NCBI GenBank assembly: GCA_050251055.1
Contig: JBFWNL010000003.1
Span: forward strand, 224,001-288,000
Source: Bacteriovoracia bacterium
GTDB taxonomy: Bacteria; Bdellovibrionota; UBA1018; JBFWNL01
Length of the DNA: 64,000 nucleotides
Direction of reading: 5' to 3'
Made by a program: the position numbers and the translations under genes. Shown in pieces: positions 1-37,613 of the stretch. Positions within the stretch are counted from its first letter, which is position 1, and every line of letters starts with the position of its first letter. The notes below the pieces were generated by a model. That model was not told where the DNA came from. It worked only from the letters and a program-made list of their open reading frames with translations, and made no database searches.

Positions 1-1
1 T

Positions 2-337
2 GGCTCGACCGTGGTGGCATTCCAAATCTACTCCTTGGCCGATCGCCAACGAAACCTGATGGTCGCCCTATTTGACGAAGCCCTCGAACACCAAGCGCAC
101 GTAGAGCTCGGCAACACGCTGGCGAGCCGGCTCGCGGCCAATCTCGGCGCGGAGGTCGACGAAAGCATCTTGGTATCGCCGCCGATCGCGACGACCGATG
201 AATACATCGAAAAATTACTCGACTCCGGCAGCGTTTCACAGCTGTTCAGCTACGTGCTCAAGTCCTCGGATGGACCTCGAGCGGTGAACGTGCTGTTCTT
301 CTCGTTCCGCCCGCAAATGGAGCGGTTCCATGTTTAG
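2..337 (+). CDS. 5'-truncated CheC/CheX-like chemotaxis phosphatase-fold protein
   Basis: Frame is open to the window edge; ELGNTLASRLAANL...ILVSPP resembles the E-x-x-N motif and downstream SPP of CheC/CheX. Confidence 0.45.
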   Translation, partial: GSTVVAFQIYSLADRQRNLMVALFDEALEHQAHVELGNTLASRLAANLGAEVDESILVSPPIATTDEYIEKLLDSGSVSQLFSYVLKSSDGPRAVNVLFFSFRPQMERFHV

Positions 338-590
338 AATGATTGGCTGGATCTTTCGCGCGACGCTCGTCACGCTGGCCGTCCTGGTCTTCGGCAATGC
401 CGTCAGTTTGCGGGGTCGTACGGTGTCCGAGCACGTGCGCGTGCAAATGAATGAGATCGGAAAGACGTCCGCTGCGGCTCGCGTGCGGAGATGGCTCGCG
501 CGCGAGTCAAACGCCGCGACCAAGCCCGCCACGCCCGACTCCGTGTCGGCGCTTCTCAGGGAACTGAATTCTAAGCCCGTTCGCGATTAA
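330..590 (+). CDS. Small hypothetical membrane-anchored protein
   Basis: ATG overlaps the end of the upstream gene; N-terminal hydrophobic segment. Confidence 0.55.
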   Translation: MFRMIGWIFRATLVTLAVLVFGNAVSLRGRTVSEHVRVQMNEIGKTSAAARVRRWLARESNAATKPATPDSVSALLRELNSKPVRD

Positions 591-595
591 GCGAA

Positions 596-811
596 TTAGC
601 GCGCTTGCGCCGCGGAGGCTGCCTTCACGGCGCCCTTGGTTTCCAGGCGATCCAAAGCATCGATATCGACGTTGTTCTTCAGCATCGCCGCCGTCACTTC
701 ACAAAACGCCGAGCGAGCGTCGGTCGGGGAAGAAAGCTCTTCCGCGCGGACGCTGATCGCTGCCATATTCAGTCCGAATACCACGATGGCCAACCACAAC
801 AAGTTTTTCAT
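596..811 (-). CDS. Small secreted protein (71 aa, Sec signal peptide, single Cys)
   Basis: MKNLLWLAIVVFGLNMAAISVRA signal peptide; GAGGAG RBS upstream; own sigma54 promoter. Confidence 0.75.
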   Translation of the reverse strand: MKNLLWLAIVVFGLNMAAISVRAEELSSPTDARSAFCEVTAAMLKNNVDIDALDRLETKGAVKAASAAQAR

Positions 812-914
812 GGCTCACTACTCCTCTGTTCTCTGCTTCTTCAACTCTGCTACTACAGCACTGGCGGCTCTTGAGAGTCCCTCTCGGGAGTCACCAGTAG
901 ATAAGGGTAGGTAG

Positions 915-931
915 TGCAACACCGGTGCCAC
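915..931 (-). promoter_or_regulatory. Sigma54 -24/-12 promoter
   Basis: Minus strand GTGGCAC-CGGTG-TTGCA matches TGGCAC-N5-TTGCW. Confidence 0.8.
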
Positions 932-1092
932 GTTGACACAGGCCTAGGTCGTCGATCTGTTTGGTTTTTTCCCGGCGCTGGATTTGCGGGGGGTGGGTCG
1001 ATTTCGACAGCCACCGATCAGCTGTAAACTCTTTGATCAGGCGGGGAAGCGGCGGAACGGCGAGAATAGCGTGGGCAGGTTTCCAAAAAAAC

Positions 1093-1123
1093 AAAAAGGC
1101 CCACGTGGTACTCCACGTGGGCC
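1093..1123 (-). terminator. Intrinsic terminator downstream of the 1149..1334 gene
   Basis: Perfect 11-bp stem GGCCCACGTGG/CCACGTGGGCC, 4-nt loop, T-run on the minus strand. Confidence 0.8.
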
Positions 1124-1148
1124 CTATAGGTAAGTCTAAAACTTTTTA

Positions 1149-1334
1149 TTAGATCGCGGAATCGGCCGCAGGAGCGCCCACCGGAGGCACCGGCACTGGA
1201 GTGCCAGGCTGACCAACGACAGTGGGGGTCTTCACGGTTTCATCGGCGGCTACGGTGCAGTTGCCTTTCACTTCCCCGGCGAAAGCGGGAGCGGCCATCA
1301 CGAGCGCCAAGATCATCAAAGTAATTTTCTTCAT
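1149..1334 (-). CDS. Small secreted Pro/Ala/Val-rich, probably disordered protein (61 aa); positional equivalent of Bdellovibrio hit-locus Bd0108
   Basis: MKKITLMILALVMAAPAFA signal peptide; GGAGGAG RBS before ATG 1334; directly downstream of the YD-repeat gene. Confidence 0.8.
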   Translation of the reverse strand: MKKITLMILALVMAAPAFAGEVKGNCTVAADETVKTPTVVGQPGTPVPVPPVGAPAADSAI

Positions 1335-1374
1335 AACCAATCTCTCCTCCAAAAAAACCTTCCACCCACTATAA

Positions 1375-1391
1375 AGCAAGCAAGGTGCCAA
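1375..1391 (-). promoter_or_regulatory. Sigma54 -24/-12 promoter
   Basis: Minus strand TTGGCAC-CTTGC-TTGCT, perfect consensus. Confidence 0.85.
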
Positions 1392-1451
1392 GCTCCGTCC
1401 CGAAAAGCCCTGGCTTTACCGGGGTTTAGCCGAACCCACGGCCGGCAAAGC

Positions 1452-1466
1452 GTCTAATGATTAGAC
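1452..1466. promoter_or_regulatory. Palindromic candidate enhancer (bEBP UAS) GTCTAATGATTAGAC
   Basis: Perfect 7-bp inverted repeat ~60 bp upstream of a sigma54 promoter; related motif at 37599, 39704 and 56759. Confidence 0.55.
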
Positions 1467-1475
1467 AGCTGCCGA

Positions 1476-3194
1476 TCAGAACGAGAGATTCACGCCCGCC
1501 GGACGAATGATATCCAGTAACGTCTGGAACGCCGTCGTGACCTGCATGGCGATTTTCCGTCCCGCCGTGGAATCCACGTTCTTGATCTCGCCCGAATTCG
1601 TATAAGCCACGTTGATCGCGCCCAGTTGGGGATCGGTGATCTTGATCGGCTTGGAGTTCTCGTTGTATTCGAACTTCAGCACGCGGTTGGACTTATCGCG
1701 CATGCGGGCGATGCGGCCCTGGGTATCGTAAAACAGCTGAACGAAACGCGCGTCGGAATCCTTGGCCGTCACCAGATTGCATTTCGGATCGTACTTGAAG
1801 CTCGACCATTTCTTCTTCTGAGTCAGTTTCGAATAGAGCTGAACGTGCGTTACTTTCCCGCAAGATTTGTCGTAAGCCAGGCGCTTCACTTCGGTCGGTC
1901 CGGACTTTTCCGTCACGTGTCCCTTGGTGTCGTACTTGAACGCCGTAACTTCCTTGCCCCGCTTGATCATGATGGGCATGCCGCAGCACTCGTTGAAAAT
2001 GGTTTCGGTGCGATCGCCATCGATCGTCGTGGCCAGGCTGTAATTGTAGAGCTCACCCGTATCCTTGACCTTCATTACGTATTCGTAGGTGCTACGCGAA
2101 ACGACCTTGCCGCCTTTGGTCTTGACGTCCACACCCACGGTGAAGTGATTACGATCGCTGTCCTTGTACTTGTAGCTATACTCGGTCAGCGTACCGTCAC
2201 GATCCTTGAGGCTCTTGACGTTCTGGTTCAGGTCCTTTCCGAAATACTCCACGTTCATGCTCGAGTTGTCGGCATACCCGATCTTCGTCAAGTTGTGCCA
2301 CTGGTCCGTGCTGTATTCGTAAGTGTAGACGTTGGCGTCGGTATCCTTGCAGTAAACCAGCTCGTTCTGCTTATTATACTTATAAACCGCCTTCTTGCCG
2401 TTGAGGCCTTCCACGCTTTCCACCAGGCCTTGGCTGTTGAACGTGAAGTAGATCTTGCGGCTGAAGTTGTCTTCGATCTTGTTGAGGTGATTGTCCTTGC
2501 CGTAGGTAAACACGATGAAGTTATTATTCTTGTCGGTGACCTTGCCCAAACGTCCCGCTTCGTTGAAACGCTCCACGCGTCCGTTATCGAAGCTACGCAC
2601 GTAACCGCCGGCCACTTTCGTCAAAAACTGGTAGCTGAATCGATTCGAGGTAAACTGCGTGCCGTCCTTAACCGTGCGCGCCTTAAGGAGGCCCTTGGCG
2701 ACGAACCCTTCCCAGGTTTCATTCCGGAAGATGGCGTCGGTGCTGAGTTTCTTCTTGAAGGCGTCGATCTGGGCCTTAGCCGTCACCATGCCCTGTTTCT
2801 TGGCCGTCTCGGTGAGGCTGTCGACCGCGGTAGCGAGCTCCGCCTTATTGAAACCGACGGGGGTAAAGCGATTCTGGGCGCCCCCGCCGTACTCGTTCAC
2901 GACCACGCTGCCGTCGGCGGACACCGTGAGGTAAACTTCGTACTCGGTGCCCCAGCCGTAACCGAAGATCCCTTGGAAGCCGGTCTTGGAGTTGTAAACC
3001 CGCTCGACCTTCGGCTCGAATCCGCCGGGATAATAAAGATCGCGGTACGCGACGAAAAAATTACCGTTCTTGAGACTCACGTTCGACGAGGCGGTCGGAG
3101 CCAAGGCCAATCCGAAAACCAATCCCAAGCCGGCGCCGATTTTCGCCGAGCCACGTACCAAGCCAGAAAAATGACGGACCATGATTACCCCCAC
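1476..3194 (-). CDS. Secreted DUF6531 + YD/RHS-repeat protein (Bd0109-like) lacking a C-terminal toxin
   Basis: Signal peptide; NVSLKNGNF...ERVYNS...GIFGYGW DUF6531 signature; repeated YD/YN-xxG motifs; no DPxG motif near the C-terminus; start may be ATG 3182. Confidence 0.85.
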   Translation of the reverse strand: MGVIMVRHFSGLVRGSAKIGAGLGLVFGLALAPTASSNVSLKNGNFFVAYRDLYYPGGFEPKVERVYNSKTGFQGIFGYGWGTEYEVYLTVSADGSVVVNEYGGGAQNRFTPVGFNKAELATAVDSLTETAKKQGMVTAKAQIDAFKKKLSTDAIFRNETWEGFVAKGLLKARTVKDGTQFTSNRFSYQFLTKVAGGYVRSFDNGRVERFNEAGRLGKVTDKNNNFIVFTYGKDNHLNKIEDNFSRKIYFTFNSQGLVESVEGLNGKKAVYKYNKQNELVYCKDTDANVYTYEYSTDQWHNLTKIGYADNSSMNVEYFGKDLNQNVKSLKDRDGTLTEYSYKYKDSDRNHFTVGVDVKTKGGKVVSRSTYEYVMKVKDTGELYNYSLATTIDGDRTETIFNECCGMPIMIKRGKEVTAFKYDTKGHVTEKSGPTEVKRLAYDKSCGKVTHVQLYSKLTQKKKWSSFKYDPKCNLVTAKDSDARFVQLFYDTQGRIARMRDKSNRVLKFEYNENSKPIKITDPQLGAINVAYTNSGEIKNVDSTAGRKIAMQVTTAFQTLLDIIRPAGVNLSF

Positions 3195-3217
3195 GAAAAA
3201 TAACTTTCCTCTCTGTA

Positions 3218-4081
3218 CTATACGTCAATATTGACGATTTTCCTTATGACAAAAGAACCGACGATTAGATTTAACAAGATCCCGAACAGAATGATCCAAC
3301 CAAGATTCGTCTGCACGAGCGGGCTGATGAATTCAGGATCGGTGTAATAAAGCACGAGGCCCATCACGGGAGGGACCGCGAGCAAAATCATGCCTTGGGT
3401 CTTCGCTTGGGCCGTGAGCGCGTCGATCTTGTTTTCCACCTTGATGCGCTCGCGAAGCGTGTTGACGATCGTATCGAAAGTTTCCGCCAAGTTCCCGCCA
3501 GTTTCCTTCAAAATATTGACGGAGGTAACGAACATCTCCACATCGTCAGACTCGACCCGTTTAGACAGGTTCAAAAAGGCCTCCTCGAGCGGAACACCGA
3601 GCTTGTTCTGGCTTAAGATCAAGCTGAACTCCTGCTTAATGGGATTCGGCATTTCGTTCACCACCAAGCCCATGGCTTGACTAATGGATAGACCCGATTT
3701 CATCCCGTTAGCCATCAAGGCAAGGGCGTCGATCATCTGGAGAACGAACTTTTTCACGCGCCGGCCATAGAGATAGTCAACGATGGGCTTGGGCGCGCGC
3801 CACCCCAAGGCGGTTACGGTCGCTCCGAATAAAAACCCCGGGATCACCTTGGGCAAAAGCAATAGGAACACGAGCGCGCCCGAGCCAAAGCTGATTACGA
3901 ACTGCCCCACGAGGATGTAATTTGAAGGCAGCTCCACGAACATGATGGAAAGCTTCTCGACGATGTAGTCGCGGGTTCCCAACGACTGGAAACGCAGCCA
4001 CTCCAAGAAACGTTTGTTGTACGAGTACGTCAGACCGAATGCGGCCACGCCAAACGTCAAGTATGCGATGTACTTCAACAT
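3218..4081 (-). CDS. tadB: Tad pilus inner-membrane platform protein TadB (T2SS F family)
   Basis: ANGMKSGLSISQA...ETGGNLAETFDTI...RERIK motifs; TM segments; follows tadA. Confidence 0.9.
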   Translation of the reverse strand: MLKYIAYLTFGVAAFGLTYSYNKRFLEWLRFQSLGTRDYIVEKLSIMFVELPSNYILVGQFVISFGSGALVFLLLLPKVIPGFLFGATVTALGWRAPKPIVDYLYGRRVKKFVLQMIDALALMANGMKSGLSISQAMGLVVNEMPNPIKQEFSLILSQNKLGVPLEEAFLNLSKRVESDDVEMFVTSVNILKETGGNLAETFDTIVNTLRERIKVENKIDALTAQAKTQGMILLAVPPVMGLVLYYTDPEFISPLVQTNLGWIILFGILLNLIVGSFVIRKIVNIDV

Positions 4082-4090
4082 GCCGTTCCC

Positions 4091-6262
4091 CTATTTCGCC
4101 GCGAACAGACCGCGCGAAATCTTCATGCCCTTGGCTTCCATGTCCTCCACGAACTTCGGAACGAAGCCCGTCGGCACGAAACGACCGAGCACTTTGCGTT
4201 TCTTGTCCAAACCTTCCTGACGGAACTCGAAAATATCCGTGAGGGTAATCACATCGCCCTGCATTCCGTTCACTTCCGTGATCGCCGTAACCTTGCGGGA
4301 CCCGTCGCTCAAACGGCTTTGCTGAATAATCAGATGCACCGCAGAAGCGATGGTTTCCTTGATCGCCTTGGAAGACAAGCCTAGGCCCGCCATCATAACG
4401 AGCGTCTCCAGGCGGGAAATCGCTTCGCGCGGGTTGTTCGCGTGAATGGTCGTGAGTGACCCGTCGTGGCCAGTGTTCATCGCCTGCAGCATGTCCAAAG
4501 CCGCGCCGTCACGGCACTCGCCAACCACGATGCGCTCCGGGCGCATACGCAACGAAGCCTTGACGAGATCGCGGATGGTGACCTCGCCTTCGCCTTCGAT
4601 GTTCTTCGGCCGCGACTCCAGGCGCACCACGTGATCTTGGCCCAGCTGCAACTCGGCGGAGTCCTCGATGGTAATAATGCGCTCGTTCTGCGGAATAAAA
4701 TTAGACAGCACGTTGAGCAGAGTCGTCTTACCGGAGCCGGTGCCCCCGGAAACCACGATATTCAAACGCGCTTCGACGCAGCAGCGCAGAAAGTCGGCGA
4801 TCTCCTGGGTCATGGATCCAAAGCCGATCAGGTCCTTGGCGACGATGCGTTTCTTGGGGAATTTACGGATAGTGATGGTCGGTCCCCGCAAAGCCAGCGG
4901 GGGAATGATGATATGGACGCGAGAGCCATCGGGCAGGCGCGCGTCCACGAAGGGAACCTTTTCATCCACGCGCCGACCGAGCGGGGTGACGATACGCTCG
5001 ATCACGTTGCGCATCTGCAGCTCACTCGAAAACGTCACCTTCGACATCTGCGGCTTGCCGGCGCGTTCGATATAGATCTGATCGCGGGCATTGACCATGA
5101 TTTCCGTCACGCTCTCGTCTGCGAGCAAGTCCTCAAGGGGCCCCAAGCCCAAGGCCTCGTCCAAAACCTCCTTAAGCATCTGGCTTTTCAGCTCGCGCGT
5201 ATTCAGGAGCGTTTCGGTGTCTTCGGTGGCCATGATATCCAGGATGCCCTTACGGGTCTTTTCGTAGAGGATTTTGCGCTGTTTGGGATCGTTGCTTTCG
5301 GTATTGGTGTTCTTGAGATCCATCGTCTCCACCAAGGCCTTGTGGATCCGCAGCTTCATCGCCGTCCAAGGATCAATTGGCGCGGAAAGGCTGCGCCCCC
5401 CCGGCCCGCTTCCTTCGGAAGCCGATCCGCCTTCGGCACCCGCGACATCCTGGGTCTTCAGAAGGGTCTGCGTCTTAGCGACCAGCCCCGTTGGTTTTTT
5501 TAACTGGGACAAGGTCTCGAGCAATTTTCCTTGCTGGATTTTGCGAACCAGGTCGCTGTAGGCACGCGCGATAGGGGCGCTCGGGGCGGCCAGACAGAGC
5601 GGAATGCCTTTGGCGAGCGAACCATCGCACGTCGTGACGTCGTCCGGAATGGCGGCGTAGATCGGTCGGTTCAGATTTTTCTGGATGATCTGCGGATTGA
5701 TGAGGTTCGCCTGCGAATACTTGTTCACGATGATCTGCACCATTTCAGGAGGGAAGAGCAGCTCCTGAATCTTGCCCAAAATGCGCTTGGTCTGGTTGAC
5801 CACGATGACATCCGCGGTAGTCACCACGAAGATCGCGGTAGCGAACTCCAGCGTCTTCATCACGTGCGCGTCCATCGTGCTACCGCAGTCGACCACGACC
5901 AGGCTGAACACGTTCGTGACCGCCTTGAAAAAACGGCCCAGTCCATCCAGATCCAAATCGGCCACCGCAAAGGCTTCGCGAGGCGCGGCTATGTAGCTAT
6001 AGCCCGCCGGTGAGTTAGTCATGTACGGGGCCAGCGTCTTGGGATCGATCGGGCCCGGGGGCATGCGCGTGACGTCGACGATCGACTGCTTCGGGTTTTG
6101 GCCCAAGATGATGTTCTGGTCGCCCAGGCTGTTGAGATCCAGGTCGACGATCAGCGGGCGCTGCTTGAAGTTCTGGAGGTATGCGATTGAAAGGTTGGCC
6201 GCGAGCACGCTCTTGCCCACGCCGCCCTTTCCGCCTACCACCGCTATGATATGACCCGGCAT
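4091..6262 (-). CDS. tadA: CpaE/TadZ (MinD-like)-TadA/CpaF ATPase fusion
   Basis: N-terminal GGKGGVGKS deviant Walker A; C-terminal [38 protein letters not shown]. Confidence 0.92.
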
Positions 6263-6270
6263 TCGACTCC

Positions 6271-7881
6271 CTATTTCACCTTGACCCGGAAGTTCTTTTC
6301 CAAGTCCTTCGTTCCCTGTGAAGCGTTCGCGATGATCTGGGGGGTGACGAAGATCACGAACTGCGACTTCTTCTTCGAGTAAGCTTTTGAGCGCAGCAAG
6401 CTGAACAACGGACTCGTCGTCGGATTGGCGAATCCGCCCGCGGCCGGGTCGTCCTTATTGAAGTTCGTCTGCACATCCGCCGAATTTACACCCGCCAAAG
6501 CCGCGCTTTCGTTGGATTTGATGTAAACCTTGGTCGTGACCTCATGCTGGGCCGTGATGGGCGCCGTGCCCGCCTTACCGACTAAGTTCGACTGCTTGAG
6601 CTCGAGGTCCATCGAGATATCCTCGCTCTGGCCGACGATCGCCGGGGTAATCTTGAAGGAAATTCCGACCCCTGCGGTGGAGGTGGCGACCTCGCCATTT
6701 GGTCCCTGCACCGCGAACGGAATCTGCGTTTCGTCGCGCAACACGCCAGACTCGCGGTTGCGGATCACGAGGGTACCCGTCTTAAGGATCCGGGCGAAAC
6801 CTGCGTTCTGCGCGCTTTGCAGCTTGGGAAAGAGGCTCGAGAGCGTCGCCGTAAAAGAGGCCGTGGTGGAGCTATCCGCGCCGCTACTACCCGTGCCCGT
6901 GGTGCCCACGGTCACCTGCGGATCGGCGGTGAAGCCGGGCTGCCACTTGAATCCGAAGACGTCTTGGTAGTCTTTGGAGAGCTCCACGAAGTGCACCGTG
7001 ATACGCACCAATTTTTCCTGCTTCTTCTGGGGCGGTGGATTCACGACCATGAAGTTCTGAATGAGGCTTTGCGGAGGCAGGCGCTGCGCGGTGGCGTCGG
7101 CGGCCAGTGCGTTGCCGGGCCGAATCTCCGGAATATATTGGAAAGCGATGCGCTCTACGCGCTTGGCCTGATCGACCCGATCCACGGTTCCTTCAAGCCA
7201 AATACGGCCGTTCACCACGCGAGTGGTAACGTTCGGAGCGATCGCGTTCACGTCCTTCTTGATCCGGTCCGCCAGGTACTGCAGCGCAATTGGCGAGAGC
7301 GTGACGAGGTTCAGGACGTTTTCCCCGTAAGTCTTGTCCGAAAGGATTTGCGATAGGCGCGCGTAGTCGGCGGGGACCAGCACCTCGCCATCGATTACGA
7401 TCTTTGTGCCCATGATGCGCGTCTTAACGCCCTCTACGTCGCGAAGCAGGGCTTCGATTTCAGCCTGTGTTTTCGTGAGGTGGGTCGCCGCCACCTGAAC
7501 GTGGAAAATCAGGCGCAGGTTGCCCTTGTCGTCACGCACGGAAACGTTGGTTTCGCCCGGCTTGAGTGGCTTGAAGATCAGCTGCCGGCGATCGCCGTCA
7601 CTGATGCGCACGAAGGTGGTCTTCACGACGGTCTCGTTACCCGAGGTGATGCCGCCCGGATCCACGTTGGCGTCGAAGTCCAAATCGATCACCCGATCCT
7701 CGCCCTGCACGAGCAGGACTTCGCGCCGGTCCGCATCTCTTTCCGAGCGATCGCTCGTTAGGCGCGGCTTGGCCGGAGGTTTCGCGCCCGAATCCGGCGC
7801 CCAAGCTCCAACACAAACCCAGGCGCACGCCGCCACCGCGACCGCCCACCCAGATTTCAAGCCTTTGCGTCTACTCAACAC
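6271..7881 (-). CDS. cpaC: Tad secretin CpaC/RcpA with pilus-formation N domain and BON-like domains
   Basis: Signal peptide; KPGETNVSV N-domain; VHFVELSK...FGFKW and FVIFVTPQII secretin motifs. Confidence 0.85.
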   Translation of the reverse strand: MLSRRKGLKSGWAVAVAACAWVCVGAWAPDSGAKPPAKPRLTSDRSERDADRREVLLVQGEDRVIDLDFDANVDPGGITSGNETVVKTTFVRISDGDRRQLIFKPLKPGETNVSVRDDKGNLRLIFHVQVAATHLTKTQAEIEALLRDVEGVKTRIMGTKIVIDGEVLVPADYARLSQILSDKTYGENVLNLVTLSPIALQYLADRIKKDVNAIAPNVTTRVVNGRIWLEGTVDRVDQAKRVERIAFQYIPEIRPGNALAADATAQRLPPQSLIQNFMVVNPPPQKKQEKLVRITVHFVELSKDYQDVFGFKWQPGFTADPQVTVGTTGTGSSGADSSTTASFTATLSSLFPKLQSAQNAGFARILKTGTLVIRNRESGVLRDETQIPFAVQGPNGEVATSTAGVGISFKITPAIVGQSEDISMDLELKQSNLVGKAGTAPITAQHEVTTKVYIKSNESAALAGVNSADVQTNFNKDDPAAGGFANPTTSPLFSLLRSKAYSKKKSQFVIFVTPQIIANASQGTKDLEKNFRVKVK

Positions 7882-7885
7882 GCCG

Positions 7886-8725
7886 TTATCTCCTCAACCC
7901 GTTGTTGGCCGGCAGGCGCGCGGCATCCCCGAGCACGTCTTGCATGCTGAGGCCGGGCGCCGAAACCCGATCGTTGTCGTCGTTGTTGCGCAAGGAAAGC
8001 GCGATCGTGTTCTTGTTGTCGGCCGCGATGAGCGCGAGCTTCTGGGCGTCGCCCGGCTCGACCTCCACCGTCACGGAAGCGAACCCGTCGAAGCGCGTAA
8101 GCGACTTCAAGCTCATCTTGTTGTCTCCCATCGAGTCTTCCAGCACGCGGGCCACGTTGTTGGTGACGTTGCGGCCCACGGCGAGCACGCCCACATCCTG
8201 CAATACCGTTTTGGCCACCTTCACGGCGCCCAGACCCACGCCTACTTCCATCACGGCAATCAAGTCTACCCGGTCGCCAGGCTTCACAAGCTTGCCCACG
8301 CCGGTTACCTCGTTCACGGGAATGGTCACCGCCCGACGTCCCGGCGTCACCTGCGGGGCGAGCCCCGTGCGAATGCTGGGTTCAGTAAGCTTGTTGTAGG
8401 TCAGCTGTTCGCCTTTTTTGATGGGCACGATAGCGACGGAACCCGACAGCGCGCGCATGTCCTTCGGGAGCGAATCATCGTCCTTCACCTTCTGGTTGAA
8501 CCAAACCGACGCCGGCTCTAAAAACTGCTTTGGAACGCTCTTCATCTCGAGCATGTTTTCGGTAATGGTGTCCATCTCGCGGATGTCCTTGGCGGCGACG
8601 ACCACCAGGACCTGCGTCCCGAACTTCTTCTCGGCCTCGTTCTCGATGCTGCTCACGTAAGTCTGCATGAAGAACACCGCCAAGCCGGCCATGAAGATGG
8701 ATAGTACAATCGCGCGGTTATTCAT
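7886..8725 (-). CDS. cpaB: Flp pilus assembly protein CpaB/RcpC
   Basis: SAF domain VVVAAKDI; GRRAVTIPV...VKPGDRVDLI; VLQDVGVLAVG. Confidence 0.92.
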   Translation of the reverse strand: MNNRAIVLSIFMAGLAVFFMQTYVSSIENEAEKKFGTQVLVVVAAKDIREMDTITENMLEMKSVPKQFLEPASVWFNQKVKDDDSLPKDMRALSGSVAIVPIKKGEQLTYNKLTEPSIRTGLAPQVTPGRRAVTIPVNEVTGVGKLVKPGDRVDLIAVMEVGVGLGAVKVAKTVLQDVGVLAVGRNVTNNVARVLEDSMGDNKMSLKSLTRFDGFASVTVEVEPGDAQKLALIAADNKNTIALSLRNNDDNDRVSAPGLSMQDVLGDAARLPANNGLRR

Positions 8726-9237
8726 CAGTAAGGCCTCCCACAGTAGGTGGGTGAAACATCATTGGTTACGACGGAATTCGATTGCGTGCAGATCGCGACG
8801 GTGTTGCGGATGCGCACGTTCGCGCGCTGGGCGCGCGGATCGCCCGGGTCATCCAATCCCGCTGGCACCCGCTGTCCCGGGCGGGTGATCGCCTGGATGC
8901 TCGCCTCCGGAATATAAGCGCCTTCATTGTCGGCGTCGGGCGCGAGGTTGTTGGTCACGCCGACGACCATCATGCCGACGTTTTGCTCCCGCATGCGCAC
9001 GGCCACCCGTTTACTCAGCTCGGGAAACGTCGGGCTATTGAAAGCCAGGAACAAAGCCTGCGCGCGTGCGTACTGCTGGTTGACGATGGACATCTGGATC
9101 GCCGTATTCACGCGGACCAACGTGACGGTGACACCGACGAGAATGGGTAATAAAAATAGGAATTCGAGGACGCTTTGGCCTCGAGAGTCGGACGCGAATT
9201 GCTCCGGGCGCGACGCCCGCCTAACATCCGTTATCAA
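8725..9237 (-). CDS. TadE-like pseudopilin
   Basis: RG/QSVLEFLFLLP prepilin cleavage motif plus hydrophobic helix. Confidence 0.75.
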   Translation of the reverse strand: MITDVRRASRPEQFASDSRGQSVLEFLFLLPILVGVTVTLVRVNTAIQMSIVNQQYARAQALFLAFNSPTFPELSKRVAVRMREQNVGMMVVGVTNNLAPDADNEGAYIPEASIQAITRPGQRVPAGLDDPGDPRAQRANVRIRNTVAICTQSNSVVTNDVSPTYCGRPY

Positions 9238-9835
9238 AAATCGCTCCTACCGAGTCCCCGTCCGCCCCACGCAGGGCATCCAGGAACTGGTCACATTCAT
9301 CAAAACTGGGTTCGCGGCCCAACCAGCTCTCCGACGTCAATTCAATGGCGCTCGCGGTAGTGCCTCCCAGTGGGATCCTGATGAGTCTCCCTCGAAAGGT
9401 GTATCGGACTCCGTCTTGCCAACTTAAAGCCCTATTTTTCTTGTCCGTTACGCCCTGTTTGCCGAATCCGACCTCCGCGCCGGTGACCTCTTCGACCCCT
9501 TCCCGGGCGCCCGCCCCGACATTCTGGCCCTTCACCAGGCCGGGCCAACGATCCAGGGTGGAACCGTCCTTCTTGAGCATCTGCTTGAGGACGGCGTTGG
9601 CGTTTTCGAACTGCTGCGACGGCGATCCCGTGGCCGAGAGGTAGGCCCGCGCCGCCATAAAAGTGGCGTAATGAACGTAGTTCCCCGCCGCGAACATCAA
9701 GGCGAGCTGCAGGAAAAACAGTACGAAGAAAAACATGATGGAGAGCGTAAGAATGAACTCGAGCACGGACTGCCCGGAGCGGCCGAGTTTTCTGGCCTCA
9801 CTTTTCTCGCGCCCACGCGCACCACCCGGAAACAT
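9221..9835 (-). CDS. TadE-like pseudopilin
   Basis: SG/QSVLEFILTL motif; YATFMAARAY TadE signature. Confidence 0.8.
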   Translation of the reverse strand: MFPGGARGREKSEARKLGRSGQSVLEFILTLSIMFFFVLFFLQLALMFAAGNYVHYATFMAARAYLSATGSPSQQFENANAVLKQMLKKDGSTLDRWPGLVKGQNVGAGAREGVEEVTGAEVGFGKQGVTDKKNRALSWQDGVRYTFRGRLIRIPLGGTTASAIELTSESWLGREPSFDECDQFLDALRGADGDSVGAIFDNGC

Positions 9836-9842
9836 ACGTTAC

Positions 9843-10145
9843 TCACCTCTGCGGGTTAAAGAAGATACGAAAGTTACCTCGATCCTGAAAACGGGGATGG
9901 AGCTTCGGCCCCCCGCTCTCGTCCGGGCCGATGGTCTGCGGATGCCCGAACTGGTAAGCATGCTTGAAGCCTTTTCCCAAATGGCCCGTCAGCCGGTCAT
10001 TGATGTCCAGGCCCACGATCGCCCGCTTCAGGAGCAGGAAAAACAGCACGACGGCCGAGAGCACGATGATGTACTCGAAAATCGCCTGGCCTCCCTGATC
10101 ACTGGCCGAGGGACGTACCGGTTGGGCGCTTCGACTCAACGCCAT
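9843..10145 (-). CDS. Pilin-like/TadE-like small protein
   Basis: GG/QAIFEYIIVL motif; ATG 10145 overlaps the end of the upstream peptidase gene. Confidence 0.7.
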   Translation of the reverse strand: MALSRSAQPVRPSASDQGGQAIFEYIIVLSAVVLFFLLLKRAIVGLDINDRLTGHLGKGFKHAYQFGHPQTIGPDESGGPKLHPRFQDRGNFRIFFNPQR

Positions 10146-10687
10146 AGATCCAACCCCAATCTCGCCACCGGATTGTCCACGGCGACCCAAACCGCCGCGA
10201 CCGCGATGGGAATCCCGAACGGCATGCGTAAGCGCCGGTCGATCTCCGGAAAACGAAACTTGAACCCTCGATTAAAAAGCGCCATGAATGGCGCGGAAAC
10301 CCGGTAAAAAAAATCGGGAAGCCGCCCCTTGAAGAGCAAAACGAAGAAAGCGATCACGGCGCCGACCGCCACCGAGAAAACCGCGACGTCAGCCGTATAA
10401 GCCAAACCTCCCCAAGCGCCCAAGGCCATCAAAAGCTTCACGTCGCCCGCGCCCATGAACCCCAGCCAGAAGATCCAGCCGAAAAGCAGGAGGCCCGCCC
10501 CCGCGCCCAGCAACGAGTCGGACGCTCCCGACCAGCCCGCTAAACTCGCGGAAACCGCGATGCCCAGCAGGAGCGCCGGCAGCGTGAGCCAATTGTAGAT
10601 TTTTCCCCGCGCCACGTCCGTAGCCAAAGCGATGAGCGAAATCAGCACGATCGCGACGAGATAGGTCTCAGTTGCTCCAAATCGCAC
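10136..10687 (-). CDS. cpaA: Prepilin peptidase CpaA/TadV (A24 family)
   Basis: TDVARGKIYNWL and MGAGDVKLLMALG catalytic Asp motifs; MPFGIPIA. Confidence 0.9.
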   Translation of the reverse strand: MRFGATETYLVAIVLISLIALATDVARGKIYNWLTLPALLLGIAVSASLAGWSGASDSLLGAGAGLLLFGWIFWLGFMGAGDVKLLMALGAWGGLAYTADVAVFSVAVGAVIAFFVLLFKGRLPDFFYRVSAPFMALFNRGFKFRFPEIDRRLRMPFGIPIAVAAVWVAVDNPVARLGLDLWR

Positions 10688-10892
10688 CAGCAGGAGCCCT
10701 CCCCGTCTTCAAGTTCTTCTCGAAGCTCGCGCCAAACTTCAGGAGCGATTCATCGATGCGCGGAACGATGTTTTGCAAAATAGCCACGGTGGCAACGATG
10801 GCGAAGGTAAGCAGAAAAATGTACTCGAACGTCGCCTGTCCGGCGCGGGCCGATGATTTTTTTGGATTAGAATTTTTAAGGACGCTGTCCAT
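10668..10892 (-). CDS. Flp-like minor pilin
   Basis: AG/QATFEYIFLL Flp-type motif (E+5, Y+6). Confidence 0.75.
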   Translation of the reverse strand: MDSVLKNSNPKKSSARAGQATFEYIFLLTFAIVATVAILQNIVPRIDESLLKFGASFEKNLKTGRAPAGAIWSN

Positions 10893-10957
10893 CTGAGTGC
10901 CACCCCGCACTTTGCTATGGACCAACCAATGCTGTCCGGGCCGATGCTTGGCGCCGG

Positions 10958-11149
10958 CTACTCCGACATCGCTTCGTCGATCTTTCCACCCAGATCGGTC
11001 GTCGCCTTGGAGATACGACCCGCGATTTCTTTCTTGAAACGCAGGGCGATCAAGACCACGGCGAAGAGAATGAGGATGTACTCCAGCGTCGATTGGCCTT
11101 CCTCGTCGCGGATGAAACTGGCGATTTTCTTTGAAACGAACTTGAGCAT
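10958..11149 (-). CDS. flp: Flp major pilin
   Basis: FIRDEEG/QSTLEYILIL classic Flp leader and motif; 63 aa. Confidence 0.9.
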   Translation of the reverse strand: MLKFVSKKIASFIRDEEGQSTLEYILILFAVVLIALRFKKEIAGRISKATTDLGGKIDEAMSE

Positions 11150-11219
11150 AGTTACCAGTTGCCTCTCTCTCCCTTCATCGTCAGAAGTCCGCCCAAACTA
11201 AAGCGAACCCCGTCTAAAA

Positions 11220-11249
11220 AGTATAACTTTATCCGATTATTTGGGTCAA
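11220..11249 (-). promoter_or_regulatory. Sigma70-like promoter upstream of flp
   Basis: TTGACC-N18-TATACT on the minus strand in the PP2C-flp intergenic gap. Confidence 0.45.
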
Positions 11250-11255
11250 CAAAAC

Positions 11256-12011
11256 CTAACCCTTTAATATAACTAAAGAAAAAGTAGCATTTTGCGCAAA
11301 CCCGGCCCCCTGCATCTCTGCACTCAGTTTTTGGTAAAGATCTTGAATACTTAGGCCATGCCCCTGGAGTTGGCTGAGGGTTTCCCGAAAGTCCGAAGTA
11401 ATTCCATGAGTTTGAAAGAGGTACCAGTCCCCCGGCTGAGCGATGACTTCGATCACCTCGGGCTCCAGATCTTCGCTCATCCCTAATGCCGCCATCGGAA
11501 TGTCCGTCGTGGGGCCCGTGTCGGTACCGAACGGATCGAGCATCCGCCCGTAACTTCGAGGCGTTACCAGCTCCACCGAACGGCAACCGCGAATCATCCA
11601 CGCCGAGCAAACGCCCAGATTCGCGAGCACCATTCGATTGCCTTCCAAATACCCGGCGACCATCGAAGCCCCGCCGCGATCGTGGATCCCGCGGCCATCA
11701 TTATACTGGATGATCTCGCGGTTCGCGTGCACGAACGAGTTAAACAGTACATTGCCCGCGAGCGAGTAGTTGGCCCGCAACTCGAAAGGCAATGTGGCCT
11801 CCAGGTCACCGGCTTCGCGCTCCAAAAAGTGCAGCACCGACTCGCAAGCCTTGCGCGCGGCCTCGGCACCGGCCTTCACGCCGCCAAAGCCATCGGCCAC
11901 CGTGAAGATGCGCCGCTGCTCGTTCATCGCCGCGTGATCTTCCTGGCACGGGGCCGCGCCCGACGAGGAAACCGTGGTAGCCGCCTGGATCTCGCAAGGC
12001 TTCAGGATCAT
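11256..12011 (-). CDS. PP2C/PPM-fold protein, probably a catalytically degenerate pseudophosphatase
   Basis: QEDH and VADGFGG retained; ANLGVCS, QTHGI and QNAT replace the GDSR, SDG and DN motifs. Confidence 0.8.
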   Translation of the reverse strand: MILKPCEIQAATTVSSSGAAPCQEDHAAMNEQRRIFTVADGFGGVKAGAEAARKACESVLHFLEREAGDLEATLPFELRANYSLAGNVLFNSFVHANREIIQYNDGRGIHDRGGASMVAGYLEGNRMVLANLGVCSAWMIRGCRSVELVTPRSYGRMLDPFGTDTGPTTDIPMAALGMSEDLEPEVIEVIAQPGDWYLFQTHGITSDFRETLSQLQGHGLSIQDLYQKLSAEMQGAGFAQNATFSLVILKG

Positions 12012-14527: not shown

Positions 14528-15528
14528 GTATCTCCCTTGATGGCCTTACTGACCTTCACGAGTTGGTCCTTGGCCTCGATGTAATACGGGCTCGCCTGGT
14601 CGCGATAAAGCAAACGCAAGATAGCTTCGTAATGCCCCTTGGACTCGCGAAGTTTTCCCGACTCGTAACCCTTTAGACCGCGATCCAGATGGAATTTCAC
14701 TTCCTCTTGAATGGCCTTGTCGCAGTTTTGCAGGTAAAGATTGGAAAGCTTGTGGCCGGGGCTGACTTGCAGCGCGGTTTCGAACTGCACCTTGGCCCGC
14801 AAGTAATTTCCCGCCTGATACTCCTTGAACCCAGCCTTAAAGAACATCGTCGCCGTCTTGTTGACTTCGGGCGAATCGTCGGGCGGAAGGAGCGAGGCTA
14901 AGTCGCGGGCTTCCACCGAGGTCGTGCGTTTCTTGCGCTTCTGGACCTGTTCGCCTTCCGTTCCCACCAGGAAATAAAGGAGCGCGCCCAAAGCGCCGTA
15001 AATCAGCAACCGCCGCTGGCCGGCGGGATTCAAGTTTGGCCGGGCCACCGCCGCCTTCATCGCCTCGCCGCCGCCAAAACTCGTCATCGCGCGGATGCGT
15101 TGGCGATGAGCATCGAGCGCCGCCTGATCCGCTTTCATCTGGGCGGGACTCTTCGCCGGAGCCTTGAGCATGAGAGTGTTGGAATCGCTGGCCGCCATGA
15201 ATTCCAGCACGGTCTCGCCGATGGTCACGGTGTTACCGGTGCGCACATCGGCGATCTTAGCCTCGTTTCCGTTGAGCAGGATCCCGTTCGCGCTGCCGAG
15301 ATCACGTACTTTCCAACCGCCTGGGACGGCGATGAACTCTGCGTGTTGCCGGGAGGACTTTAAATCCGAGATCATCACGTCGCAGGTCTCACCCCGCCCG
15401 ACCGTCGCCCGCGCACCGGTGACGACGAAAATCGCGCCGTAGTCAGGCCCCTGAATGACCTTAAGCCGCATCAACTCGCCGGGCTGGCGGGGAAGGCTGT
15501 TTTGTCGGAAGCGCGTGGCGTTTGGCAT
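14524..15528 (-). CDS. FHA-TM-TPR protein
   Basis: VGRGE...SSRQH...DLGSANG FHA; TM LLIYGALGALLYFLV; TPR-like C-terminus. Confidence 0.85.
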   Translation of the reverse strand: MPNATRFRQNSLPRQPGELMRLKVIQGPDYGAIFVVTGARATVGRGETCDVMISDLKSSRQHAEFIAVPGGWKVRDLGSANGILLNGNEAKIADVRTGNTVTIGETVLEFMAASDSNTLMLKAPAKSPAQMKADQAALDAHRQRIRAMTSFGGGEAMKAAVARPNLNPAGQRRLLIYGALGALLYFLVGTEGEQVQKRKKRTTSVEARDLASLLPPDDSPEVNKTATMFFKAGFKEYQAGNYLRAKVQFETALQVSPGHKLSNLYLQNCDKAIQEEVKFHLDRGLKGYESGKLRESKGHYEAILRLLYRDQASPYYIEAKDQLVKVSKAIKGDT

Positions 15529-15532
15529 ATCC

Positions 15533-17191: not shown

Positions 17192-17604
17192 ACTTCATCC
17201 CCCGCGCTGACTCCGCAGCGCTGGATCGTTCCCAATGGCAACTCGAGCGTCTCCGTCGCCCGGAAGTCCGCCACCGGGAGCAATTTCCACGGACGCACGT
17301 TCTCGCGCACCGAGGAAACTTCCCAGCGGTCTCCCGCCCGGCGAATAAACACGACGTCGATCGGCATCCGCATGAACCACATGTGGATGTTGTTGCAACG
17401 AGGGAAGAACATGCCTTCCCCCGCATTCAACGTCGCGCGACCGATGAGCCCCACTAGGCGCTCCAGAAAACGCTCGGCCACGATACACTTTTCGGCTAGA
17501 ACGGCTTTGTTTTTGAGGGTTTGGATGGTGACGCGGCGAGATTTGTCGCGGGCGCGGACGGCGCCGGCTGAGTTTTGACGGTCGATACCGCTCATTTCCG
17601 CCAT
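17179..17604 (-). CDS. DUF192 family protein
   Basis: ERLVGLIGR...EGMFF...IHMWFMRMPIDVVF...TLELPLG. Confidence 0.85.
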   Translation of the reverse strand: MAEMSGIDRQNSAGAVRARDKSRRVTIQTLKNKAVLAEKCIVAERFLERLVGLIGRATLNAGEGMFFPRCNNIHMWFMRMPIDVVFIRRAGDRWEVSSVRENVRPWKLLPVADFRATETLELPLGTIQRCGVSAGDEVCIN

Positions 17605-17632
17605 AAACTTGACGTCTCCCCTGTCCGCGCGT

Positions 17633-18559: not shown

Positions 18560-18575
18560 AATCCTACCCACTAAG

Positions 18576-26476: not shown

Positions 26477-26495
26477 AGCATAGAAGGAGCGAATC

Positions 26496-29269: not shown

Positions 29270-30889
29270 TTAGGCCGCGCCTTCGCCTTCACCCGGGCCA
29301 CGCTGATTGCCGCCCGCCGCGGCCGCGGCGGCCGCCATTTTACGCTTATCTAGGCCGTACTTCTCGACCTTCATGATGAGGCCGGCGCGGGAGATGCCGA
29401 GCTCTTTGGCGAGCCGGCTCTTGTTCCACTTCGTACGGCGAAGACCTTCGCGGATCATCGTCTTTTCGAGCTCTTCCAAGGCGTCCTTCAGCTTACCCGA
29501 AACACGCACGCCTTGAACCTTGGCATTGGCGCCGTGCTCACGGATGCGTTGCGAGAGCATATCCGCGGAAACTCGGACTTCATCGCCCGATAGCACGATC
29601 AAACGCTCAATCTCGTTCTGCAGCTCACGAATATTGCCGGGCCACGGATAGTCGAAGATCTTTTCCATCGCGCGCTTAGCGAGCGCCTTAAGCGGAACCG
29701 CTTTTTCTTTGCATCCATTCATGAGGAAGTTATCCACGAGCAGCGGGATATCTTCCTTGCGGTCGCGCAGCGGCGGGACCACGATATTGATCACGTTGAT
29801 GCGATAGTATAAATCTTCACGGAACGTGCCCATTTCGACCATCTCTTTTAGATCTTTATTGGTCGCCGCGAGCACGCGGACGTCGACCTTGCGCTGCTCG
29901 GTGCCGCCGACCGGCGTCAGCGTTCCTTCCTGCAGGACGCGCAAGAGCTTCACTTGCATCGCAAGCGTCATGTCTCCGATTTCGTCCAGGAATAAAGTCC
30001 CGTGGTTCGCGGCCTCGAACAAACCCTTCTTGTCCTTGAACGCGCCGGTGAACGCACCTTTCAAGTGACCGAAAAGCTCGCTATCGAGCAAGTTTTCGTT
30101 GAAAGCCGAGCAGTTCACGGTGACGAAGTTAGCGTCTTTTCGCGACGAATTGTAATGGATCGCGCGCGCGATGAGCTCTTTACCGGTGCCGTTTTCGCCC
30201 TGAATCAAGACCGTCGACTCCGAAGTCTTGATCTTGTCGAGCATCGAGTAGAGTTCCTGCATGGGCTTCGACTTGCCGATCATCGAATCGTAGCTATAAC
30301 GTTCGCCCAGCTGATTATTCAACGCGCTGATGCGTTCTTCACGTTTCGTGATCTCGGTGTGAAAAGCGATGATTTCTTGGGCGACCAGGTCCACGAGCTC
30401 GTGGAAGTACTTGCCTTCGCCCTCGTCGAGCACGCGGAGGCGGGCTACGGCCTGTTCGAAGTGCTCGCCGTCCACGCCGTATTGCTCGGCGCGGGCTTTG
30501 GCTTTTTTCTTATTGGCTTCGCTCACTTCCTTCTCGATGAAGGAGTACGCGAAAACACTGCCTAAAAATTCGCCATCCATCGTGATGGGCGTGATGAAAG
30601 CCTTTTCGACGCCCATGGGGCCATCGACTACTTTATGGGCAGGGTCGCCCTTCAGGAAGCTTTCGTTGGCTTCCGTCATGTGCTTGAGTACCAGCTCGCG
30701 CCCCTTGTCGGTCGGCAAAAGCAACGCGCACAGCGGGTTCTTGAACATGCGCTGACGATCCAGCGGATCGTAATTTTTTACGTTGCCGCGCTCGTCGAGG
30801 AAGAAGACTTCGGTATTGAACCATTGCGCGAGGATGTGCTCGAGCTTGCGGATGACGTGGATGTGTTTTAGCTCTTCCCAATTGATCAT
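29270..30889 (-). CDS. Sigma54-dependent activator (bEBP) with N-terminal PocR-like sensor and Fis HTH
   Basis: GENGTGKE, ELFGHLKGAFTGA, LFLDEIG, WPGNIREL, WNKSRLAKELGISR. Confidence 0.92.
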   Translation of the reverse strand: MINWEELKHIHVIRKLEHILAQWFNTEVFFLDERGNVKNYDPLDRQRMFKNPLCALLLPTDKGRELVLKHMTEANESFLKGDPAHKVVDGPMGVEKAFITPITMDGEFLGSVFAYSFIEKEVSEANKKKAKARAEQYGVDGEHFEQAVARLRVLDEGEGKYFHELVDLVAQEIIAFHTEITKREERISALNNQLGERYSYDSMIGKSKPMQELYSMLDKIKTSESTVLIQGENGTGKELIARAIHYNSSRKDANFVTVNCSAFNENLLDSELFGHLKGAFTGAFKDKKGLFEAANHGTLFLDEIGDMTLAMQVKLLRVLQEGTLTPVGGTEQRKVDVRVLAATNKDLKEMVEMGTFREDLYYRINVINIVVPPLRDRKEDIPLLVDNFLMNGCKEKAVPLKALAKRAMEKIFDYPWPGNIRELQNEIERLIVLSGDEVRVSADMLSQRIREHGANAKVQGVRVSGKLKDALEELEKTMIREGLRRTKWNKSRLAKELGISRAGLIMKVEKYGLDKRKMAAAAAAAGGNQRGPGEGEGAA

Positions 30890-30921
30890 GGCTTAGTCCC
30901 TCGGTTATTGACTCAAGTGAC

Positions 30922-30948
30922 TCTTCGGCAAAAGCGTCAAAAGAGTTA
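30922..30948 (-). promoter_or_regulatory. Sigma28-like promoter for the bEBP gene
   Basis: Minus strand TAAC-N15-GCCGAAGA. Confidence 0.5.
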
Positions 30949-31076
30949 ACAAGATTTTCCAACTCTTTGACACCGATGTACGTTTTCTAGGCATGTCCAA
31001 CACTTAGCCAGCCCGAAACTGTTAAGAAATAGGCCTTGGCAGCAGCCTTAATATCCGATAAAAAGACTAAATTCTT

Positions 31077-37582: not shown

Positions 37583-37613
37583 TTATCGGCGGAAACTCGC
37601 CCAAAGCTTAGAC
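37583..37613 (-). promoter_or_regulatory. Sigma28-like promoter overlapping candidate UAS GCCCAAAGCTTAGAC
   Basis: Minus strand TAAG-N16-GCCGATAA; imperfect palindrome 37599-37613. Confidence 0.5.

Follow-up and report, generated by a model that had tools for sequence, protein, structure and literature searches.

How the hit locus of Bdellovibrio switches cells between predation and prey-free growth has been an open question since the locus was first described. It arises again in a 64,000-nucleotide stretch of DNA from a Bacteriovoracia bacterium (assembly GCA_050251055.1, contig JBFWNL010000003.1, positions 224,001 to 288,000; the whole stretch is the window hereafter), in which a tad pilus operon ends with the gene for a DUF6531/YD-repeat protein (the YD protein) and is followed by genes for two small proteins with signal peptides (peptide 1 and peptide 2). 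A preliminary description had seen here a hit-locus-like module, in which one empty RHS cage might serve two alternative, separately regulated peptides as interchangeable cargo. By sequence homology and gene order, the window locus is a variant of the Bdellovibrio hit locus. Beyond this identity we favour, at a probability of roughly 0.55, the reading that this hit locus, of an Oligoflexia-type member of Bdellovibrionota, would encode an open, bowl-like accessory of the Tad pilus with peptide 1 as its partner, that one sigma54 activator would govern the peptides, and that peptide 2 would form a second tier. Coordinates are collected in Table 1. Publications are cited by PMC number.

Identity of the locus

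The proteins closest to the YD protein are 53-63% identical to it, and the named ones come mostly from Oligoflexia and other Bdellovibrionota metagenome-assembled genomes (MAGs). The proposed hit-locus identity was borne out by comparison with Bd0109, the RHS-type protein of the Bdellovibrio locus. Its counterpart in our sequence set, P0292, was reached by a search from a Bdellovibrio-type homologue and is labelled as B. bacteriovorus rhs family (UniRef RepID Q68VD7, 551 aa); it is a cluster representative, identified by label, size and count of Y[DE] motifs, the HD100 allele being 550 aa long. P0292 has a mass of 62.8 kDa and 13 Y[DE], and the published values for Bd0109 are 62.5 kDa and 13. 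The YD protein aligns with P0292 from end to end, the C-terminal helix included, at 33% identity over 555 columns (E 2e-92). Its domains are DUF6531 and RHS_repeat in Pfam and YD repeat in NCBIfam, and it has the predicted Sec signal peptide that is a trait of the Bd0109 family. In a midpoint-rooted tree of 67 sequences, an Oligoflexia clade (0.996) is separate from a Bdellovibrio clade (1.0). Because the tree leaves the two clades separated, one-to-one orthology with Bd0109 rests on synteny. Two longer homologues, P0121 and P0159 (838 and 793 aa), carry additional C- or N-terminal sequence and are possibly fused forms.

A single genome scan confirmed 568 matches, and the related loci used here are the best 80 of these, amounting to 66 loci. 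The YD C-terminus is included in 57 of these loci, and the 50 with at least 1400 nt downstream, all from related Oligoflexia, form the counted set. TadB is encoded immediately upstream of the YD gene in all 52 relatives with upstream DNA; in the window, 24 nt separate the end of tadB from the GTG of the YD gene. On the downstream side, the order in multi-peptide loci is peptide, peptide, a convergent membrane protein of ~90 aa, an open reading frame (ORF) of ~140 aa and a gene that is CheY-like by eye. In HD100, the order is bd0109, bd0108, BD_RS00505, bd0103 (86 aa) and bd0102, which encodes a chemotaxis response regulator (PMC3627812). The synteny with HD100 is two-sided, with tadA-tadB on one flank and the CheY-like gene on the other. 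From this gene order, the convergent 86-aa protein of the window is the probable equivalent of Bd0103. Bd0103 was also considered as the counterpart of the second peptide and set aside, as its HD100 coordinates (86 aa, overlapping the CheY-like Bd0102) better fit the convergent membrane protein.

The YD protein as a predicted partial RHS shell

The structure model of the YD protein (537 residues) has a predicted local distance difference test score (pLDDT) of 95.5 and a predicted template modelling score (pTM) of 0.89. It contains a run of ~40 strands, a three-helix insertion (residues 82-131) and a C-terminal helix (511-531). When compared with the Rhs core of S. bongori it aligns with residues 360-787 of 360-1420 (Z 29, root-mean-square deviation 2.5, 414 residues), and Foldseek concurs on the Rhs family. 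The match covers only the N-terminal ~430 of the ~1040 residues of the Rhs shell (~40%). Covariation analysis (424 sequences, effective number 276) recovered the hairpins with a turn period of ~200 residues, which would give the YD protein ~1.8 turns of sheet. Since the model matches only part of the Rhs shell, the YD protein is likelier to be an open bowl than a cage, and the cage of the preliminary description does not stand as an observation.

The N-terminal plug and the YD beta-spiral are common to the model, the Rhs cores of type VI secretion systems (T6SS) and the Tc toxin B/C shells (PDB 8qjd, 8qja, 7q97, 4igl). In contrast to these shells, the YD protein lacks the DPxG protease, the C-terminal plug and the toxin, and adds the Sec signal peptide, the helical insertion and the C-terminal helix. 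In agreement with what had first been noticed, a sequence scan found no DPxG motif in the entire protein, which ends in a conserved hydrophobic helix with neither a toxin tip nor PxxxxDPxG autocleavage. The features of a closed-cocoon Rhs toxin, namely a one-chain shell of ~1040 residues, an autocleavage motif and a toxin, are all wanting. Furthermore, 324 of the 362 full-length homologues stop 3-9 residues past a conserved P[AS].

Purified Bd0108 binds pre-folded Bd0109 with a dissociation constant (Kd) of 45 uM and N ~3, and remains disordered (PMC4267844). An open bowl fits this mode of binding, and a site open to the peptide is favoured by the binding of Bd0108 to Bd0109 that had been purified on its own. 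In the same publication, Bd0109 is described as lacking protease and tip, and encapsulation is hypothesised (PMC4267844). Encapsulation would suit a closed, empty RHS cage that takes either of two interchangeable peptides, whose promoters answer different signals. Conservation is strong in the hydrophobic C-terminal helix and tail; the helix may act as a lid or connect subunits, and could serve a cage by shutting one bowl or coupling two, although the fold itself amounts to ~40% of a Rhs shell. No firm contact for the helix was found by covariation among the 424 sequences (best z 5.3). With a partial shell as the model, the question is no longer encapsulation but reversible binding or closure through oligomers.

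Two more cysteines of the YD protein, at model residues 410 and 437, show strong covariation (z 11.2) and probably form a lineage-specific disulfide. The pilin-like N-terminus proposed for Bd0109 (PMC3818213) was not seen, the model aligning with the Rhs plug from residue 2.

The small exported proteins

The three ORFs of the preliminary description lie where it had placed them, and the two small ones encode peptides of 61 and 71 aa with one Cys each. Signal sequences (N-termini with basic, hydrophobic and AxA parts) were judged by eye and with a heuristic. Pfam and NCBIfam gave nothing above cut-off for either peptide, and in the ESM Atlas peptide 2 falls into unnamed clusters alone (<=0.81). 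The model of peptide 1 has no fold past the signal helix (pTM 0.24). Peptide 1 fits the profile of first (slot-1) peptides of the relatives, with none of 300 shuffles scoring as well, and the score of peptide 2 on the last-slot profile, equalled by 165 of 300 shuffles, is not significant. Both peptides are predicted to be small, exported, disordered proteins of the Hit type adjoining the YD gene.

Counting small signal-peptide genes near homologues, a check proposed at the outset, showed that the peptides and their sigma54 boxes are conserved in position. Peptides are present in 49 of the 50 loci (one in 24, two in 22, three in 3 and none in 1), and 25 loci have two or three; the inverted second peptide of L058, found later, stands outside these counts. 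In total 82 peptides were compared, comprising 70 script calls and 12 found by eye, and five script calls, being shadow frames or belonging to the family of the membrane protein, were discarded. Although Cys played no part in this selection, a Cys past residue 22 is present in all 82 peptides, with exactly one in 70 and an odd number in 77, compared to Poisson expectations of 28% with none and 46% with an odd number. In 52 peptides, moreover, G[EQ] stands no more than 24 residues ahead of the Cys (null mean 13.5, maximum 24). In the window, GE stands at the mature N-terminus of peptide 1 (seen by eye, outside the range of the script), and peptide 2 lacks it. GE presumably lies also in the conserved 32-40 segment of Bd0108.

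Apart from the Cys the peptides are hypervariable, with a mean column identity of 17-19%, and A, S, G, K, T, P and E make up 65% of the mature residues in the relatives. Among the 30 closest locus pairs, in which the C-terminal 240 aa of the YD proteins are 78-94% identical, identity between the mature slot-1 peptides is 14-35% for 28 pairs, and 51% and 78% for the remaining two. Aside from the Cys, the slot-1 and last-slot profiles have little in common (hhalign probability 39%, 6 columns).

Such divergence despite a well-conserved YD protein could provide specificity if the peptides were exported, lineage-specific signals or effectors (for kin, density or prey) and the YD protein were their receptor or export chaperone. 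A copy number of one to three is consistent with such signals, and a 'receiver' role and quorum-like host-independent growth have been raised (PMC4267844). However, a conserved receptor side facing drifting peptides is the pattern expected of disordered chains under weak constraint and not of lock-and-key recognition, and no conserved neighbour resembling a processing enzyme or immunity gene was found in the loci of the relatives. Furthermore, mutations of Bd0108 take effect in clonal cultures, and supplying the gene complements them (PMC11323537). We consider a signalling role unlikely and keep to peptide 1 as a probable partner of the YD protein.

The Cys could also form a mixed disulfide with a conserved Cys-Cys pair of the YD protein (ECC motif), acting as a covalent redox switch. 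The ECC motif is present in 47 of 57 YD proteins, beside peptides that mostly have a single Cys (70 of 82), and the CxxC peptides of L029 and L036 co-occur with YD proteins that lack the pair. Nevertheless, seven of the nine full-length YD proteins without the pair are still accompanied by one-Cys peptides, five being Cys-free in the mature protein. An obligatory peptide-YD disulfide is unsupported, as Cys-free YD proteins retain one-Cys peptides, and we regard such a switch as very improbable. The single Cys would most likely form disulfides between peptides in the periplasm, for which the odd number of Cys in 77 of the 82 peptides also counts.

Promoters and a palindromic upstream site

Each window peptide had been credited with its own consensus sigma54 promoter, and the pattern TGGCAC-N5-TTGCW is indeed found in exact form twice in the 64 kb, both times before a peptide gene (0.03 expected; none of 100 shuffles reached two). 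The terminator reported between the peptides is likewise present (Table 1), and in the relatives terminator-like hairpins follow 10 of 26 upstream peptides, compared to 1 of 130 shuffles. No sigma70 consensus promoter was found in positions 1-4000 of the window, and no Rfam match in positions 1-12000. Across the relatives, all 29 later peptides and 20 of the 53 first peptides have a sigma54 box (one mismatch allowed) 40-137 nt ahead of their start, the background being 8 of 3032 windows of tad DNA. First peptides that have no box mostly start 6-131 nt past the YD stop. Among first peptides, sigma54, FliA, sigma70 and read-through seem to have replaced one another as the source of transcription. 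In L003, L005 and L010, the space between the YD stop and the first peptide contains, by eye, a sigma70-like promoter with a palindrome of the CTGAC-N-GTCAG type over it and no sigma54 box.

Dyad counting in the peptide promoters gave TGT-N11-ACA, and the trained matrix corresponds to TGTCnAAnnnTTnGACA. With each locus left out in turn, 48 of 49 promoters scored above the 95th null percentile, comprising 20 of 20 first and 28 of 29 later promoters. Allowing up to three mismatches, the palindrome is present in 47 of 51 promoters and in 144 of 1595 background windows of coding DNA. The offsets of the site lie between -55 and -136, with a helical phasing of 10.2-10.4 bp (R 0.62 for n=48; R 0.49 and p ~8e-4 for unique positions); such phasing is expected where an activator has to face the sigma54 polymerase. 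An origin of the palindrome as an artefact of FliA -35 elements was rejected, the two overlapping in only 3 of 51 cases.

In the window, the best palindrome of the 64 kb lies before peptide 1 and is, judging from its sequence and position, probably an enhancer for a sigma54 activator. A palindrome is common to both window promoters, and therefore one activator probably drives both peptides. In addition, GTGTC stands beside the -24 box of window peptide 2, and in the relatives GTGT(C/A) is found there in 17 of 29 later promoters but in only 1 of 20 among the first (Fisher p 2e-4). The simplest reading of these promoter sequences is that a single activator would govern both genes, with the later one under an additional layer of control. 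The claim of alternative, separately regulated peptides is therefore upheld in part: the promoters, the terminator and the GTGT(C/A) of the later gene are separate, while the palindrome is shared.

The same features can be held for the closed cage with interchangeable peptides. Separate promoters, terminators after upstream peptides and the proximal GTGT(C/A) of later promoters would suit cargoes under different signals, and the Cys, with G[EQ] upstream, is common to both slots. However, the palindrome precedes first and later slots alike, only 9 of the 25 multi-peptide loci have an own sigma54 box for each peptide, and the slot profiles differ. Of the supposed interchangeable trans-encoded cargo, the separate small secreted genes remain, and the interchangeability is weakened by the slot profiles. 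We regard the cage as decidedly unlikely, and the open bowl with commonly activated peptides is preferred.

The candidate for the cognate activator of the peptide promoters is a protein encoded within the window, with a PocR-type sensor, a sigma54 AAA domain and a helix-turn-helix (HTH); rpoN lies outside the window. Three copies of the palindrome are located upstream of the activator gene (30935, 30956 and 30994), one of them overlapping a FliA-like promoter (by eye). PilR was also considered as the activator; literature searches brought up no paper connecting it with bd0108. HD100 encodes an NtrC-family regulator of similar length, Bd1891 (530 aa), which has a FliA promoter and is expressed in the attack phase (PMC3627812). 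According to the same source, a third of attack-phase promoters had no regulator assigned (PMC3627812), and a conserved sigma54 box with a defined operator provides a testable regulatory input for the predator switch.

Weaker sigma54 boxes (37506, 39652 and 56862) follow the next best palindromes of the window (37598, 39703 and 56758) at distances of 108, 67 and 104 nt, roughly in phase. The genes behind them encode an exported protein, a lipoprotein-like product and a 1142-aa PA14/PKD adhesin-like protein, and the palindrome at 37598 also overlaps a FliA-like promoter. These sites possibly belong to a wider regulon.

Peptide 2 and the downstream block

The membrane protein at the border of the locus, for which Pfam gave no match, belongs to a family present in 24 of the 50 relatives, near a CheY-like gene and two CNNM/hemolysin-like genes (by eye). 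Its gene accompanies 23 of the 25 loci with at least two peptides and 1 of the 25 with one or none; in this sole exception, L058, an inverted second peptide lies 5 kb off, beside the membrane-protein gene. Insertions of 1-5 kb part peptide 2 from the YD gene in six loci (L001, L037, L041, L046, L058 and L066). When the locus breaks, peptide 2 keeps to the downstream block of genes and not to the YD gene.

This association and the insertions would fit a peptide 2 that is not a partner of the YD protein and is instead a separate member of the sigma54 regulon at the border of the CheY-like operon, as would the palindromes and weaker boxes before the three other exported-protein genes of the window. 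Set against this, the anatomy of peptide 2 is that of peptide 1 (signal peptide, one Cys, G[EQ] motif, disorder), and in L022 the two peptides share one inverted operon and one sigma54 promoter. For single-peptide genomes, the view of peptide 2 is confined to 6 kb around the locus. A fully separate peptide 2 seems doubtful to us, and we retain peptide 2 as a putative second tier of the hit locus.

Peptide genes are inverted relative to the tad operon in L022, L025, L041, L052 and L058. Both inverted peptides of L022 form a single operon behind one sigma54 promoter, and in L052 two divergent promoters have overlapping upstream palindromes. Sigma54 boxes are retained at four of five inverted peptide genes, one of these being the second gene in its operon.

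In HD100, a 261-nt 'sRNA' (small RNA) between bd0108 and bd0103 rises in all bd0108 mutants (PMC3818213). Gene order suggests that this 'sRNA' could be the messenger of the second peptide, and it offers a cheap test of whether a peptide is encoded there. As a conjecture at well under even odds, the hit locus as a whole could be the output of a sigma54 regulon of predatory Bdellovibrionota, in which a cytoplasmic activator with a PocR sensor induces disulfide-linked, disordered peptides that load a half-Rhs bowl at the Tad pilus, and the 'sRNA' would be the BD_RS00505 mRNA, induced by feedback on Bd0108 loss.

Proposed mechanism

In the reading that we favour, the YD protein would be a Sec-exported accessory of the Tad pilus, produced together with the tad operon, with a predicted fold of an open beta-bowl, made of an Rhs N-terminal plug and ~1.8 sheet turns, that ends in the conserved hydrophobic helix. 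Peptide 1, as a Bd0108-type partner, would bind to the bowl weakly and reversibly, as suggested by the work on HD100, and by analogy this binding would gate pilus activity and the decision between attack and growth. One enhancer-binding protein at TGTCnAAnnnTTnGACA would induce both peptides through their sigma54 promoters. The dose of peptide would then be set by a signal, apart from the tad operon with its FliA-like promoter. As a further member of this regulon, peptide 2 would be under one additional control element, serving as a second tier or back-up and not as a mutually exclusive alternative.

Several observations weigh against this reading. The counts derive from the best 80 of 568 matches, which include no Bdellovibrio or Bacteriovorax type-strain locus, placing the DNA of those strains outside them. 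In the tree, homologues of unknown context sit between the window clade and the Bdellovibrio clade. The CxxC of Bd0108 is wanting in both window peptides, which have one Cys each, and a database search with the last-slot profile, the slot-1 profile being outside this search, gave 12 proteins, none named Bd0108 or Bd0103. A sigma54 box is missing from 33 of the 53 first peptides, three of which carry FliA-like promoters instead. The palindrome of window peptide 2 is weak (4 of 12 mismatches; score 10.2 against a null 99th percentile of 9.9), the palindrome background consists of coding DNA, and the locus statistics take no account of relatedness. The distribution of the membrane-protein gene (23 of 25 against 1 of 25) counts against peptide 2 as a partner of the YD protein. 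Finally, the 15-nt gap between bd0109 and bd0108 in HD100 leaves no room for an own bd0108 promoter, and TGGCAC or TGGCAT occurs in none of the 140 mapped HD100 attack-phase promoters, giving no support for sigma54 use there.

Relation to published systems

The hit locus of HD100 resembles that of the window in having a YD homologue without protease or toxin tip, placed after tadA-tadB and next to a gene for a small, disordered, exported protein. Its bd0108, bd0109 and bd0110 are co-transcribed (PMC3818213), and its tad operon is driven by FliA, whereas Bd0108-Bd0109 are described as outside FliA regulation (PMC5430801). Bd0108 is 101 aa long, contains CxxC and starts 15 nt past bd0109, in contrast to window peptides of 61 and 71 aa with one Cys. 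Unlike Bd0108, each window peptide has a sigma54 box and an upstream palindrome. In HD100, the second slot has been listed either as an sRNA or as the hypothetical BD_RS00505.

Bacteriovorax marinus SJ has two short hit-like genes, BMS0183 and BMS0184 (PMC3526173, PMC4267844). The layout BMS0182-BMS0183-BMS0184, a Bd0109 homologue followed by two short signal-peptide proteins, is that of the window. Each short protein is 34 aa below the 101-aa Hit; one paper speaks of 'duplicated hit genes' of limited similarity, and the other of no significant homology to Bd0108 (PMC3526173, PMC4267844). In activated-sludge Bdellovibrionales MAGs, 20 bins have two or three signal-peptide genes (57-133 aa) near Bd0103 and Bd0109 homologues (PMC10469934); these arrays belong to another order within the phylum than the window. 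A layout of one RHS protein, two secreted neighbours and trans cargo is already in print (PMC3526173, PMC4267844, PMC10469934). To this layout, the present analysis adds an enhancer grammar shared by the sigma54 promoters, the single-Cys rule of the peptides, a model of the YD protein as a partial shell and a possible new interpretation of the 'sRNA'. No paper linking the hit locus with sigma54 or TGTCnAAnnnTTnGACA was found in a literature search that left subscription journals, including early hit-locus papers, mostly outside.

Further features of the window

Table 1. Position of the hit-type locus, its putative control elements and the candidate activator in the window.
Feature	Position	Strand	Remarks
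Convergent 86-aa protein	330..590	+	N-terminal hydrophobic segment; conserved right border of locus
Peptide 2	596..811	-	71 aa, signal peptide, Cys37; likely positional equivalent of BD_RS00505/hit 'sRNA' by gene order
Sigma54 -24/-12 box, peptide 2	915..930	-	Exact pattern match
GTGTC element	935..939	-	Immediately upstream of peptide 2 -24 box; later-promoter type
Palindrome upstream site, peptide 2	1023..1039	-	109 nt before box; weaker, score 10.2
Intrinsic terminator after peptide 1	1096..1125	-	13-bp stem, T tail; z = -5.5, 0/200 shuffles
Peptide 1	1149..1334	-	61 aa, signal peptide, Cys26, low-complexity mature part; Bd0108 positional equivalent
Sigma54 -24/-12 box, peptide 1	1375..1390	-	Exact pattern match
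Palindrome upstream site, peptide 1	1451..1467	-	77 nt before box; score 18.5, best in 64 kb; 1/12 mismatch
DUF6531/YD-repeat protein gene	1476..3194	-	572 aa from GTG; Bd0109-family by homology
tadB and cpaE-tadA fusion	3218..6262	-	End of tad/flp operon, running into YD gene
Candidate cognate activator	29270..31010	-	Includes upstream region (ORF 29270-30889); PocR-type sensor, sigma54 AAA domain, HTH

Read from the sequence, the likelier start of the YD gene is the ATG at 3182, preceded by a G-rich stretch. The long operon upstream of it also holds a secretin, cpaB, a TadE-like gene, a prepilin peptidase and FHA-domain genes, and contains two Flp-like pilins (by eye). On the far side of the locus, an unassigned ORF at 2-337 lies upstream of the 330-590 gene.

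FliA-like promoters at 11202 and 18604 (minus strand) stand before the first flp pilin and before the tadC/FHA block, respectively. Positions 11256-18571, on the same strand and upstream of the flp pilins, encode a PP2C-like protein, three FHA-domain proteins (two with TPR), a DUF192 protein and TadC, uniting two tad clusters that stand apart in HD100. We take this layout to resemble that of Myxococcus Kil. For comparison with the promoters at 11202 and 18604, FliA promoters have been mapped for Bd0119 and Bd0470 in HD100 (PMC3627812).

Finally, methylcitrate genes occupy positions 24069-27638. The best NCBIfam model for their PrpD is the one for high-GC Gram-positive bacteria (825.8 bits, under the cut-off of 950), and a horizontal origin of these genes is possible.

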